Source of the DNA: Styela clava
Taxonomy: Eukaryota
Direction of reading: 5' to 3'
Assembly (NCBI RefSeq): GCF_964204865.1
Contig: NC_135262.1
Span: 13,888,001-13,952,000 of the forward strand
Length of the DNA: 64,000 nucleotides
The notes under the pieces are model-generated. The model searched no databases. It had not been told where the DNA came from and saw only the letters and a list, made by a program, of their open reading frames with translations. Shown here piece after piece: positions 109 through 8,957 of this stretch (within the stretch, counting starts at the first letter, position 1; the number at the start of each line of letters is the position of its first letter). The translations under genes were made by a program, and so were the position numbers.

Positions 109-970
109 ATGAAGTTTTTTCCTGCAATTTTTTTTTCTTATAACGTAGTTATGTGCGTTTCTCTCTTCAATCATTAAACTTTCACATTGTGTAGTTCGCA
201 CACCAAGTATTTATAAGGGCTGTCCCTTAGTTTCACCCTCTTTCCTCGAGAGAGCTGAATACTTCTTGTAAAAACTAAGTAAAAGTGTTCCAAACAGTTA
301 TTTGGGGATGTTTGATAGAAAATAATTCTGAGAAAAAATAGCAAAAATTGTTGTCATGCATGCTCGAATATTGTTAGCTCGAAAACTTTCAAGTATGGCA
401 ATAATTTGAGCAATATGTAGAAAAAATTAAAGAAAAAACCTTCCCACTGTTTAAATTTCAAGTTTCATTTCAACTTGCGGTATGAAAATTCACCTTGGAA
501 AATTGCATATGTTTGTGCTATGCCGAGAAACTCGTTAATATTGCCATCAAAAATGGTTGCAACTATTTTAAAGTTTATAGAGGTAAATACTTTTATTACC
601 TTTGCACATTTATCAGCATTCCCGTGACAACAGAGGCTATTGTTGTCAAATTACTTCATACAAGAAAATATGATTAATTTGTAGAAGTGAAGTATATTTA
701 GTCAGATAATATATATTTAATGGTCCTGATGAATTACCAAATTTTCATTGATTCTATATTCTAAGCCATACATGCGCCATTTGTTTATTCAGTGAGATAT
801 TTTTTGAGATCATGTTGCGTTCTATTGAAAAATGTTTTTCAGATAAGAATTGTTTAGTTGCAAGAAATAAAGTAATAAAATATAGTTAATTATTTCCTAA
901 AATAATGCCTATATTATTTACTTGCAGGTAACAAATGTTGGGAATGCATTCATTGATCATTGCAACACCT
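109..970 (+). pseudogene. Pseudogene of the 8-Cys cationic secreted peptide family (copy P1)
   Basis: Exon 2 at ~463-582 reads VSFQLAV*KFTLENCICLCYAEKLVNIAIKNGCNYFKVYR with a phase-1 donor g|gtaaat; TGA 483-485 sits where the first Cys aligns. Exon 3 from 928 (ttgcag|) reads GNKCWECIH*, with an apparent 4-nt 'catt' duplication shifting the last Cys out of frame. Exon 1 (ATG 109, MKFFPAIFF) is tentative. Confidence 0.7.
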
Positions 971-1976
971 GAAATTTCTGAACTTCTATCGGACTTGCTG
1001 GCTAGACGTTATATTTTAATTCACTGTTATTCCTAATTGCGATTGCGTGAATAAAAAAATGAAGATTTATTTAAAAATGCATAATATTATTACTGGAATG
1101 TATGCTAATTTCGTATATAATATTATTCTGCTTTGGTTTTGTAATTTTTATATCTTATTTGAAAAAAAAATTCTGTTTTCGTTTGTTGATAAGCTAATAT
1201 AAATTAATGGAGTCACTTTAAAAGCACGCTTTCTGATTTCTGAGGTACGGCAAACAATACTAAACTTTAGGGCAAATGCCATGATTTTGTTGAATGAAAA
1301 TTGTACTTTTATTAACAATGAGAACACGATTCACCTCATTATTTAATTAGAATTGACTTGTATTTGGAGATTTTTGTGCTTGTAGCAGATAAGCTTCTGG
1401 CGCCATTTTTTCATACAATGAAGATTTATTTACCTGTTCTATATCGATGAAACAAAACGTCAATATTATCGTTCCAGATCATATACTTTTAAAAAATGTC
1501 AACTTTCAGTAAGATTTTGTGAAATAGTAATTTTAATCATTCTTCGTTTGAAATTTATGTATTAGAATAACGTAAAGCGTATGTTAATGTACCGTACATA
1601 GTGACATACATACATTTACTGAAATGAGGGAAACCGTTATTAGTGAGTTTGAAACAAAAGAGAACCTGTTGTTGAAATTTTGATTTTCATCAATGAGTCT
1701 AATACTCTAGTCTAGTATAACTCATACAACATTCTCATAGACTACTTATTGGTTAAGGTGACTGTAGCGCTACACTAATTACTACAAGATTTTGATGTGG
1801 AACTGATGTGGACCGAATACCCATGACGTACTCAACATATACAAAGAAATTTTATATGCTCCATTTTATTGAATATTAAAAGTTGTCCAGCTTAAACGTG
1901 AAAATAATTCGAAGCTTTGCCAATCTGGTTTCTATTTTAAAGCATTTGTGACATGTTGTTCTTGGCTTCATTTCGT

Positions 1977-2768
1977 TTAACTCGCGAGATTAATCGATCT
2001 TTGCCCCTTGTAGCTCTGACAACTGTTACAGGCCCAACATTTTTCGACTGTTGAAAACAAATTTAAAAATTATTAAATATCTAAACATAGCAATATACCA
2101 ATTTATATGATAGGATGTAGACGCATATAAAGATAATAACAGAATCACCTCAACTAAGGAACAAAAACTCTATATCTTTAATTAGTATAGATATTTCACG
2201 TTTAATGTCATTGTTTTGATAACATCACCATCAAAAAATCACATGTTTCTTGTTTATTTAATAAGTTTGAAGATATAAAAAAACATACCTTTCGACTTTC
2301 TGAGAAACGTATCACATCCAAATCTTCTCACACGGTTTGCATATACAGCACAAAAACATTTGCATGTATTGCAGTTACGTTTTGAAGATCTTCTAGATTT
2401 GGCTTCAGTAGATGAAATCGCTAAAATCATATAATTTGAAATCTCAAGATAAATGTTGTTGCTAGTGTTGAGGACGAAAATTTAAAAAAAATACAGTAGC
2501 AATTTAGTGAGATATTGGAAGTTCATTCGCTGAGCATTTGACTCATAGCTTATTAGAAGTTGAGCATTTCAGATGTAAAAATAGTTCCATGGATTACTGA
2601 AAGATATTAGTTTTTGTTTATCTTACATAAATAAGAAGAATAAAAAAATAATAAAAAAAATTCTTTCCATTTGATGTATAATTTGAAAATTCAAAAAATT
2701 ATACACTTATAAAACTCACCCAGCCAAAGAAGAATCGTTGATAGTAATAAAACTTTGAAGGGCTTCAT
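1977..2768 (-). CDS. Secreted cationic 8-Cys peptide precursor, 83 aa (copy P2, intact)
   Basis: Exons 2768-2720, 2420-2289, 2047-1977, GT-AG, both introns phase 1. Protein MKPFKVLLLSTILLWLAISSTEA-KSRRSSKRNCNTCKCFCAVYANRVRRFGCDTFLRKSKVEKCWACNSCQSYKGQRSINLAS. Signal peptide, dibasic KR site, 8 Cys, 15 K/R vs 2 D/E after the signal. Confidence 0.85.
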
Positions 2769-6820: not shown

Positions 6821-7763
6821 TAGGGCTACCAACCGTGCCGGAATAACCGGGACAGTCCCGGAATTTACGTCTAGCGTCCCGTGTCCCGGGCTGGAATACG
6901 GTTGTCCCGTAATTTAACGACAACCCAGTCGTTTTAAAATAGAAGGCCATTGTAAGCGTGTCGGCTTTGTTCAAAACGGGGAAAGGATGTAATTCACACA
7001 AATATATTATTCAATAAATTATATCGGTATGGATCAGTCAAATAAAAGTGAGTTGAAATTTGGGGATAAGACAAGTTTCGTCAACCGTAGCCTATGACAA
7101 AACACTGAAATAATGTGAACAATTGCAAATGAATGATAACATTATATACAGCAGTTATCTTAAGAAGATCAAAAAATTATTTCAGTAAGATTTGTTTAAA
7201 ACTTTAGTCAATAAAGTTGTGACGTGAAACAATATTTTGTGTCTATTGTTTTTAGTTTATAATTCACTGTTAATGTAGGGCTCTTTTATTAACAGAATTT
7301 CATTATTCAGTCAGTTTTCAGGCTTGCATAGTCGTCTGTTTTTAGCGAGAGTTCATTATTTATTATATTTCCGTAAGAATTACAAATTTTAACAAAACTT
7401 TGTGAAAACTAACAAATATCTTCTTAAAGCGGCAAAATCACAACAAAAATACAAACTCAAATACCGGGAATGCTGATTTCTTGTGTTTTCTGTTAAACAA
7501 TTAAATCTACTTAATACAAATTTTACATTTCCCCTGTTTTAGTTTTTTTTTTGCATTTATGCGTCAAAGACTATACATTTCACAAGTTTTTTTTTTCATT
7601 ATGATAAAATTATTTCCAGTTTGTGAAAATAACACTGCACGACACGCGGCGTGCACTGTTGCTTTTGACATGCTTCGCGTTTCAAACGCTTCTGTTGCAT
7701 CAATTTTCGAATTCTAGACATTAAGGTGTCCCGGAATGATTTAACACAAAGTTAGCAACCCTA
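6821..7763. mobile_element. Non-autonomous hAT-like TIR element
   Basis: Ends tagggctaccaac / gttagcaacccta, subterminal ccggga repeats, degenerate 8-bp TSD (ggtattag / aatatgag); the empty site 'gatatgag' is visible in the paralogous unit at ~4240. Confidence 0.85.
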
Positions 7764-8311
7764 AATATGAGTAGCATGTACCTAACCACGGCTAAATTTT
7801 CTATGGCGCTGTAATGGATGATCTTTATGTATATTGCAAGAATCACCAAGACTAAATTAATTGACTCAATTGTTCTACATCACAGTCATGACATTTTTAC
7901 AAATTTTATTTTGTAGCATTAAGTCTGTCAGGACTCTACAAATTAGCAGTTTGCAACAATGATGAGAATAATAATTCATACGGTTCAAATGTACACAAAT
8001 AAAAATTTTGCAAAAGTGGTATAGCATATTTATTCTTGAATTTATAATTACTGATGTTAAGTTAAGTTTGTAAAGAAAAAGGACCGAAAAACAGCTGGGC
8101 ACCATGACTTTTTAATAGTAAGCAGAAACTTTCGTGGAGCACAACTGCAGCCATGTTTATTGCAAATCTGAATAACCAATTGAGTCTAGGTAGATTTGTT
8201 CAATACGACATCATCAATTATTCTATCTGATGTTCGAAAAAAAATATTCATATAACAAAAGTGTTTTAATTTATTTCACGATATGTTTAATCTCCATCTA
8301 GATGACAATGA

Positions 8312-8957
8312 TCAATTTCCAAGTCCTCCAACAACTCTATCAAGATTTTGGCAACTGTCTCGACATTTCCAGCATCTTTTAGCTAAAATAAATATAACAA
8401 AAACTTCGGGTTTTGAAAAATTAAATTGGGAACATTCAATTGTAAATGAAAAATATTTTAATTAATATTTTGATTGAAGTAATATATTAAACAACTGAAA
8501 GGATAAATATTCATATATTCATTTTTATTTTTACCTTTCCATTTTAACTTGAAAATTGCTTCACAGCTCTCTTTAATTAAGCTCTTTTCAAATCTTTTAC
8601 AAAAACAGGCACAAATCTTCCACACCCGTTTACATTTTTTGTCCTTAATAAGATTTCCTCTGTTTTTAGACTGAGTCGAATCGCCGTATTCACACAGAAC
8701 GATACCTGTGAAAAGTTTTAATGAATTTGCTAATTTTAATGATAGTTCATGCATAAAATTTCAAAAACTGTATCTATTTATATAAACAAATATATATGTA
8801 AAAATAGAAACCTGCAGTTGGTTGTCTCGAATTGCCATGCCAAACTACTTAAATAATTCTAATTTAATAATGATTTTAAAATAGCCAATTCCCAGGTTAT
8901 GGATTTTTTTTAGTTACCTATAAATAGAATGAAGCCCGTCGTTAACACAAGTTTCAT
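8312..8957 (-). CDS. Secreted cationic 8-Cys peptide precursor, 93 aa (copy P4, intact)
   Basis: Exons 8957-8918, 8705-8535, 8382-8312, phase 1/1. Protein MKLVLTTGFILFIGIVLC-EYGDSTQSKNRGNLIKDKKCKRVWKICACFCKRFEKSLIKESCEAIFKLKWKAKRCWKCRDSCQNLDRVVGGLGN. The last coding exon is 71 nt, as in P2 and P3. Confidence 0.85.

Follow-up and report, generated by a model that had tools for sequence, protein, structure and literature searches.

The tandem peptide genes at positions 109–8957 of a 64,000-nucleotide window from the ascidian Styela clava (contig C17:13888001–13952000; about 31% guanine plus cytosine, in a genome of 377 Mb) belong to a family that is real, larger than first described, and partly decayed. 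The family is of a known kind, the secreted cysteine-rich effector peptides, and is apparently undescribed, its cysteine scaffold having matched nothing in the searches run. Our preferred explanation, which we find about as easy to doubt as to believe, is a new family of disulfide-stapled helical host-defense peptides, in which the cationic members would attach to microbial envelopes and damage them. An earlier reading of the window (the sequence-only reading) had described four paralogs, P1 to P4. Two of them, P2 and P4, proved to be intact, the other two are pseudogenes with lesions in each, and the gene set was incomplete, with five more copies located upstream of the window and another on a separate contig, C5.

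P1 to P4 were mapped by six-frame motif scans and exon mapping. P2 and P4, both on the reverse strand, each have an open frame in three exons, interrupted by two GT-AG phase-1 introns, as had been proposed; exon 1 encodes the hydrophobic signal region, exon 2 cysteines 1 to 5, and exon 3 cysteines 6 to 8 together with the tail. In P2, exon 1 (2720–2768) carries the start codon and the hydrophobic signal region, exon 2 (2289–2420) the end of the signal, a basic pro-segment with RR and KR and Cys1 to Cys5, and exon 3 (1977–2047) the element CWxC-x2-C, the tail Leu-Ala-Ser and the stop, for a product of 83 residues with a cysteine spacing of 2,1,1,11,11,2,2. The exons of P4 carry the start codon and hydrophobic signal region (8918–8957), Cys1 to Cys5 (8535–8705), and CWxC-x3-C, the tail Leu-Gly-Asn and the stop (8312–8382, an exon into which one low-depth contig is spliced), for 93 residues spaced 6,1,1,11,12,2,3. 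Both spacings fall within the eight-cysteine pattern given by the sequence-only reading, and the high divergence that it noted between the cysteines is borne out by an identity of 19% outside the cysteines (32% in the core).

The two broken copies show distinct damage. P3 (4975–5682, reverse strand; exons 5682–5643, 5311–5132 and 5045–4975) keeps the layout of P2 and P4 and has three lesions: TT at the first donor, a Phe in place of the first Cys, and a TGA (5034–5032) where CWxC should have its Trp. Its intron 1 holds a high-copy repeat at about 5405–5514. P1, on the forward strand, consists of an exon 2 remnant (463–582; type A, a paralog of the upstream copy U2) with an in-frame TGA at 483–485 and, compared with intact U2, a loss of about 44 nucleotides including the first Cys, and of a CWxC exon 3 remnant (928–1005) whose frame is shifted by a 4-nucleotide duplication. 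No exon 1 of P1 was found in the window or in the stretches upstream. The ATG at position 109, previously taken as its start, was rejected, since it lies in DNA (1–440, forward strand) homologous to intron 1 of the upstream copy U5, with 311 of 395 aligned bases identical. Recoding of TGA was likewise rejected for P1 and P3 because each carries independent lesions.

Searches of the animal's own genome, together with 80 kb of upstream DNA, delineated a 31.7-kb cluster on C17 with nine copies, six of which have intact frames and three of which (P1, P3, and U5) are broken. The copies upstream of the window are U4 (C17 13865262–13866298, forward; intact, with four exons), U2 (13870097–13872237, forward; intact), U3 (13874069–13873351, reverse; intact), U5 (about 13876450–13877523, forward; broken, with an ATA start, most of exon 2 gone and a stop at Cys8), and U1 (13885133–13884326, reverse; intact). 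A seventh intact copy, on contig C5 (12642739–12642315, reverse), has two phase-1 introns like the genes of the cluster. Three types can be distinguished, namely A (U2, U5, and P1), B (U3, U1, and P2), and C (U4, P3, and P4), with the A and B copies arranged as three convergent pairs that were duplicated as a unit. The cluster has grown and decayed by birth-and-death duplication. These copy counts are lower bounds from genome searches: a family profile run over the window, its 100-kb flanks, and 40 kb around the C5 gene yielded no further copy, nor did three additional own-genome searches. The pattern W-x-x-C-x-C-F-C had 34 matches genome-wide versus 28 in a control, and 6 of the 30 examined were family members (five in the cluster and the C5 gene). 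Three weak genome matches (L019, L072, and L073) proved unrelated to the family; the chance match in L073 is a long intronless frame (L073:221–1850, forward), which we take to resemble an SV2-type major-facilitator transporter.

Public sequencing contigs join the exons of P2, U2, and U3 precisely where the phase-1 GT-AG introns had been predicted. One 452-nucleotide contig in run X1 spans all three exons of P2, and its intron 2 is joined in run X10 as well, so the junctions that were to be checked in P2 hold. For U2, contigs of X1, X9, and X10 skip both introns; those of X2, with DNA-like coverage, do not. For U3, intron 1 is skipped in X1, X9, and X10 too, and a single contig of X9 crosses all three exons. 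For P4, there is a single X1 contig at a depth of 3.8. Over 149 bases, its exon 3 part has 5 mismatches to P4 versus 35 to P3, and because of this it is best, if weakly, read as a P4 allele. Among the contigs listed, none was a spliced one from U4, and run X6 covered only repeats in this region. Since the contigs, which come from runs of two studies whose status as RNA is a guess, skip the introns at GT-AG sites, spliced transcripts exist; the contigs report splicing alone, not tissue or level. That these would be spliced but untranslated transcripts, or functionless debris, seems very improbable to us. Such a view could draw on the 3 of 10 copies that are broken, on the absence of 6 of the 7 intact copies from the searched protein collections, and on the fact that the family is known here from DNA and spliced contigs alone; however, the eight cysteines, the intron phase, and the tail have been kept at about 30% identity on two contigs, the ratio of nonsynonymous to synonymous substitution (dN/dS) is below 1, and RefSeq holds a protein model for U4.

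All seven intact members follow the motif C-x(2-6)-C-x-C-F-C-x(11-13)-C-x(10-12)-C-W-x-C-x(2-3)-C, at pairwise identities of 30–69% in the core and 17–63% outside the eight invariant cysteines. Each starts with a hydrophobic N terminus (best 11-residue Kyte-Doolittle mean of 2.2–3.1 for six; for U4, judged from its sequence), consistent with the signal peptide claimed earlier, here predicted from hydropathy only. A dibasic pair 0–5 residues upstream of Cys1 in all seven gives predicted mature peptides of 52–59 residues, whose predicted net charge is +8 for P2 and U3, +9 for U1 and U4, +10 for P4, +3 for C5, and +1 for U2. The value of +13 previously given for P2 was reproduced when counting past residue 23. 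The label “cationic” therefore suits five intact members (+8 to +10) and not U2 and C5. These five contain 35–48% hydrophobic residues, and their helix 1 has a hydrophobic moment of 0.36–0.53 and a net charge of +2 to +6.

A tail of the form Leu-[Gly/Ala/Ser]-[Gly/Ser/Asn] ends all seven members across four lineages; chance would produce it with a probability of about 0.002 each, for a motif defined after the fact. Four of the seven end in Gly, a predicted amidation signal, and C-terminal Gly is known to serve as such (PMC10608444; here and below, we compare with the accessible parts of PMC7024374, PMC10608444, PMC13208793, PMC5116183, PMC8004829, and PMC5465252). Both U2 and C5 combine a Lys-Arg pair two residues ahead of Cys1 with a terminal Gly. 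The conserved tail hints at a specific partner, and together with the prohormone-like layout of the low-charge members and a dN/dS below 1 it keeps a role as signaling ligands alive. In such hormone-, neuropeptide-, or chemokine-like peptides, the bundle would be a scaffold, the often amidated tail would activate a receptor, and the basic surface would bind polyanions of the tunic or matrix. The C terminus of anaphylatoxins acts on a receptor in this way. In ascidians, C3a serves as a chemoattractant (PMC5465252). Further points in its favor are that the tail persists despite non-Cys identities of only 17–38% between types, that the mature region is under purifying selection, and that U2 and C5, the most divergent members, group together in the tree (bootstrap 92, unrooted); the single-copy C5 gene may be the older gene. 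Yet no homolog was found outside Styela clava in searches that would miss unannotated small genes, and genes for hormones tend to be conserved among taxa; duplication and loss have been rapid; and hhalign against the genome's own anaphylatoxin-type domains returned a probability of 0.08% (two sequences on that side). We regard the signaling reading as a possible one that we nevertheless doubt.

It is tempting to speculate further that this is an undescribed tunicate family with its own four-disulfide three-helix fold, in which an older near-neutral amidated signaling peptide of the C5/U2 type, its receptor-binding tail conserved, was duplicated in Styela and became cationic antimicrobials, with the turgencins, ascidian antibacterial peptides discussed below, as distant shortened relatives. 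This scenario is improbable in our judgment; if it were true, an invertebrate chordate would possess a free-standing class of chemokine-like and antimicrobial ligands.

Substitution rates were compared in the three pairs of B-type paralogs (60 codons a pair), where dN/dS of the mature region is 0.35, 0.44, and 0.61. Mature dN (0.17–0.22) is 2–3 times the signal dN of 0.08 and equals the intron divergence of 0.16–0.23. With this fast mature dN next to a conserved signal, the peptide surface thus appears to change quickly, without demonstrated positive selection. Variable surfaces on small disulfide scaffolds serve binding functions, and the peptides might be secreted, non-lytic binders, such as protease inhibitors, gamete or larval surface proteins, antifouling or deterrent peptides of the tunic, or metal carriers. 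The charge range of +1 to +10 would suggest differing targets, the three convergent A/B pairs fit as well, and one scaffold can carry different activities (PMC10608444). Against this, neither Pfam nor PDB sequences gave a match to inhibitor, vanabin, or toxin families, and the structural model lacks the conserved exposed loop typical of canonical inhibitors. We consider binders unlikely, although not far-fetched.

The AlphaFold2 model of U4, computed with 12 exon pieces in a shallow alignment, has a mean predicted local distance difference test (pLDDT) score of 53 and a predicted template-modeling (pTM) score of 0.37, with 10-residue blocks at 58–78 over residues 51–110. It comprises helices at 65–78, 81–85, and 91–108 and no strands. 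A weaker second model (mean 52, mostly 50–70), built for C5 with its open intron translated, is also all-helical. In the C5 gene, intron 2 (L036:1353–1433, reverse) is 81 nucleotides long, in frame and stop-free, and its retention could insert 27 extra residues between Cys5 and Cys6. The U4 model, of moderate confidence, predicts a three-helix bundle, which disulfides would staple. C2 and C4 stand at i and i+4 on helix 1, and helix 3 bears C6, C7, and C8 at i, i+3, and i+7, a register that suits a nested ladder; deduced from this helical register only, the disulfides would plausibly be C2-C8, C4-C7, and C5-C6, plus C1-C3. Foldseek, which had been recommended along with AlphaFold, found no match in the PDB. 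VIA-align, used also to look for helical disulfide bundles of the anaphylatoxin, saposin-like, or pheromone type, scored best at Z 4.8 (root mean square deviation 4.0, 56 aligned residues), with sigma-factor region 4 and other generic three-helix proteins; none of 48,161 structures reached Z ≥ 5, and among the best 50 of the 624 with Z ≥ 2, no CS-alpha-beta family was present, for models of moderate-to-low confidence. These fold searches speak for the families listed and do not show that the fold is new.

Taken as host-defense peptides, the family members would act as follows. The signal peptide would direct the precursor to the secretory pathway, and a convertase would cut at the dibasic site ahead of Cys1, releasing a 50–60-residue eight-Cys peptide. 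The four disulfides would then form, plausibly in the pattern given above, and the four Gly-ending members would be amidated. Contact with anionic membranes would be made through the amphipathic basic helix 1. For U2 and C5, which are near-neutral, another target or role would be needed. Tandem duplication accompanied by pseudogenes is how immune effector families typically turn over. Together with a conserved leader on a variable mature region and a turgencin-like layout, this birth-and-death turnover points to host defense, and the charge of +8 to +10 combined with an amphipathic helix 1 in five members counts in the same direction. Such a helix is the usual equipment against anionic microbial surfaces (PMC10608444), and Styela clava makes other antimicrobial peptides. 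An antimicrobial function is plausible as judged from sequence features, while the toxin-like character once suggested found no specific support.

Several observations weigh against this explanation. U2, spliced in three runs, carries only +1 and C5 only +3; mature dN/dS is below 1 in all three pairs, with no average positive selection; and the Leu-small-small tail kept in all seven members is not obviously needed by a purely membrane-lytic peptide. These three points argue against simple membrane lysis as the role of the whole family. Moreover, dibasic pairs are expected by chance in basic members, the moderate model stems from a shallow alignment of exon pieces in which disulfides are unreadable, and the likeness to turgencins is one of spacing alone.

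The protein collections hold one of the seven intact members, U4 (RefSeq LOC120332661, “uncharacterized protein”). As the searches would have returned P2, P4, U1, U2, U3, and C5 if recorded, six of the seven appear unannotated as proteins, as the sequence-only reading had supposed, and are therefore invisible to protein-level mining. No relative outside Styela clava appeared in Pfam, PDB sequences, protein collections, the ESM Atlas, or Foldseek; because these searches miss unannotated small genes, orthologs in other tunicates may exist unseen. In Pfam, none of the family's pieces scored above the cut-off, and with full-length U4 and the exon pieces, even matches of E up to 10 included no CS-alpha-beta family. 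In a word-indexed protein collection, the exon 2 profile (23–104 amino acids only) and C5 exon 2 matched nothing, and U4 matched only itself. HMMER, run over 1.84 billion representatives with a profile lacking exon 3 and C5, returned two matches, U4 and a tandem-repeat ENA protein (P0002); the latter was judged a chance match. The ESM Atlas gave no usable match, which shows neither absence nor novelty, and PDB sequences gave one chance match outside the core (E 1.2) and none with the profile. The literature searched, which left out subscription papers and supplements, contained no mention of LOC120332661 and no description of the family. The scaffold called unfamiliar by the sequence-only reading thus had no family or fold match in the searches run; with neither a confident match to a known family nor a lack of spliced transcripts, the proposal of an undescribed peptide family stands.

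Other features of the locus were recorded alongside. A short high-copy element with inverted repeats, resembling a miniature inverted-repeat transposable element, occurs at window positions 5405–5514, 20866–20974, 33625–33709, and 42927–43136, with one copy inside P3 intron 1 and one inside U2 intron 1. Judged by their motifs, reverse-transcriptase-like fragments lie in and next to the cluster and a transposase-like frame farther upstream (L004:2200–5400, L007:6680–8700, and L008:8000–10000). Near the peptide cluster, at 19400–26200 (forward), lies a scavenger-receptor-like gene of multiple exons, which include several of SRCR type (21362–21886 matches Pfam SRCR at E 9e-25), EGF-like ones, and a transmembrane one. 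A second tandem family occupies 43000–62500 in repeat blocks spaced by about 2.8, 7.6, and 10.5 kb; small Cys-rich exons with a hydrophobic stretch behind them (for example, 59077–59250 and 62222–62370, forward) and Gly-rich tails (46843–47073 and 59938–60267, forward) resemble small single-pass membrane proteins, and two tails had no Pfam match. The window further contains a 261-amino-acid open frame that has PPPY close to its end (14330–15115, forward) and an exon-like charged frame of 152 amino acids (37842–38300, reverse), both without a Pfam match, and a Helitron-like fragment at 50831–51565 (forward; PF14214, E 7e-6, below the cut-off).

In the literature covered, disulfide-rich host-defense peptides are scarcely described in ascidians, being represented by the turgencins and St-CRPs of Synoicum and two single-Cys dimers of Halocynthia, and from Styela clava only linear peptides are described. 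Coming from the invertebrates most closely related to vertebrates, a new eight-Cys helical scaffold would enlarge the innate-immune toolkit known in chordates and might be a source of salt-tolerant antimicrobial leads. In addition, the paralog set, ranging from +10 to +1 and taken with or without the tail, offers a contrast between killing and signaling.

How, then, does the family compare with known systems? In CS-alpha-beta peptides (short for cysteine-stabilized alpha-beta), CxxxC comes before a C-terminal CxC. Invertebrate defensins, mytilins, myticins, and macins resemble the family in being small secreted peptides with 6–10 cysteines, often cationic and in tandem families. However, all seven members have CxCxC at the N-terminal and C-x2-C-x2/3-C at the C-terminal side and so fail the test of order, and the two models, of moderate-to-low confidence, are all-helical without strands, whereas the class has a cysteine-stabilized helix motif and is characterized by one helix linked to a pair of antiparallel strands (PMC5116183; PMC10608444). 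The family likewise differs from big defensins in having eight cysteines with no adjacent pair, a basic or polar segment before Cys1, and no Pfam match. Big defensins end in a terminal CC. They consist of a hydrophobic N-terminal domain and a six-Cys beta-defensin-like domain (PMC10608444). St-CRPs (CC-C-C-CC) and mytimycins, whose arrays start with CC and which carry an EF-hand extension, have adjacent CC pairs; the family has neither these pairs nor the extension.

Anaphylatoxin (ANATO) domains of C3a/C5a and fibulin are small, cationic helical disulfide bundles with a C-terminal tail, and their inner cysteine spacing of about 12, 12, and 6 is similar to that of the family. In contrast to the family, they contain CC pairs, in the pattern CC-x-C-x-C-x-CC, and are cut from a large protein; the family has no Pfam match, and PF01821 occurs in this genome at two other loci, L061 (G000:C5:11989774–11989896) and L060 (contig C19), which are probably complement C3 and fibulin. 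The shallow hhalign comparison with these two domains gave a relation no support. The distance between L061 and the C5 peptide gene is 0.65 Mb, a proximity that is probably coincidental. The clavanins, styelins, and clavaspirin come from the same species and serve hemocyte host defense, and clavanins and styelins are amidated (PMC10608444, PMC5465252), but these are linear helices without disulfides, and the clavanin family matches other loci, with two clavanin genes on contig C1. The genome also encodes a GH6 domain of the cellulose-synthase type, and no COX1 turned up in the assembly.

The nearest layout is that of turgencins A and B from the ascidian Synoicum turgens, which are cationic, amidated, partly helical antibacterial peptides of 35–36 residues with six cysteines spaced 3,4,7-8,2,3 and nested disulfides 1-6, 2-5, and 3-4 (PMC7024374). 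Like the family, they are ascidian and cationic, lack adjacent cysteines, and have a helical tendency around Cys1-2, Cys3, and Cys4-6; their amidated C terminus is predicted for four of the seven family members. The outer spacing C-x3-C...C-x2-C-x3-C corresponds to C2/C4...C6/C7/C8 in four of seven members, the three B-type ones having a final x2. Differences are the eight cysteines and 52–59 residues of the family, its inner spacers of 11–13 and 10–12 in all seven members versus 4 and 7-8, and the motifs: CxCFC and CWxC are missing from the turgencins, and the turgencin motifs CxMAC and KKxGG from the seven family sequences. The inner spacers of turgencins fall short of these by about two and one helical turns, which would preserve register. 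The turgencins are a lead by spacing alone. With six cysteines and other motifs on the turgencin side, the family is not to be filed as a turgencin, but it may nonetheless work like one.

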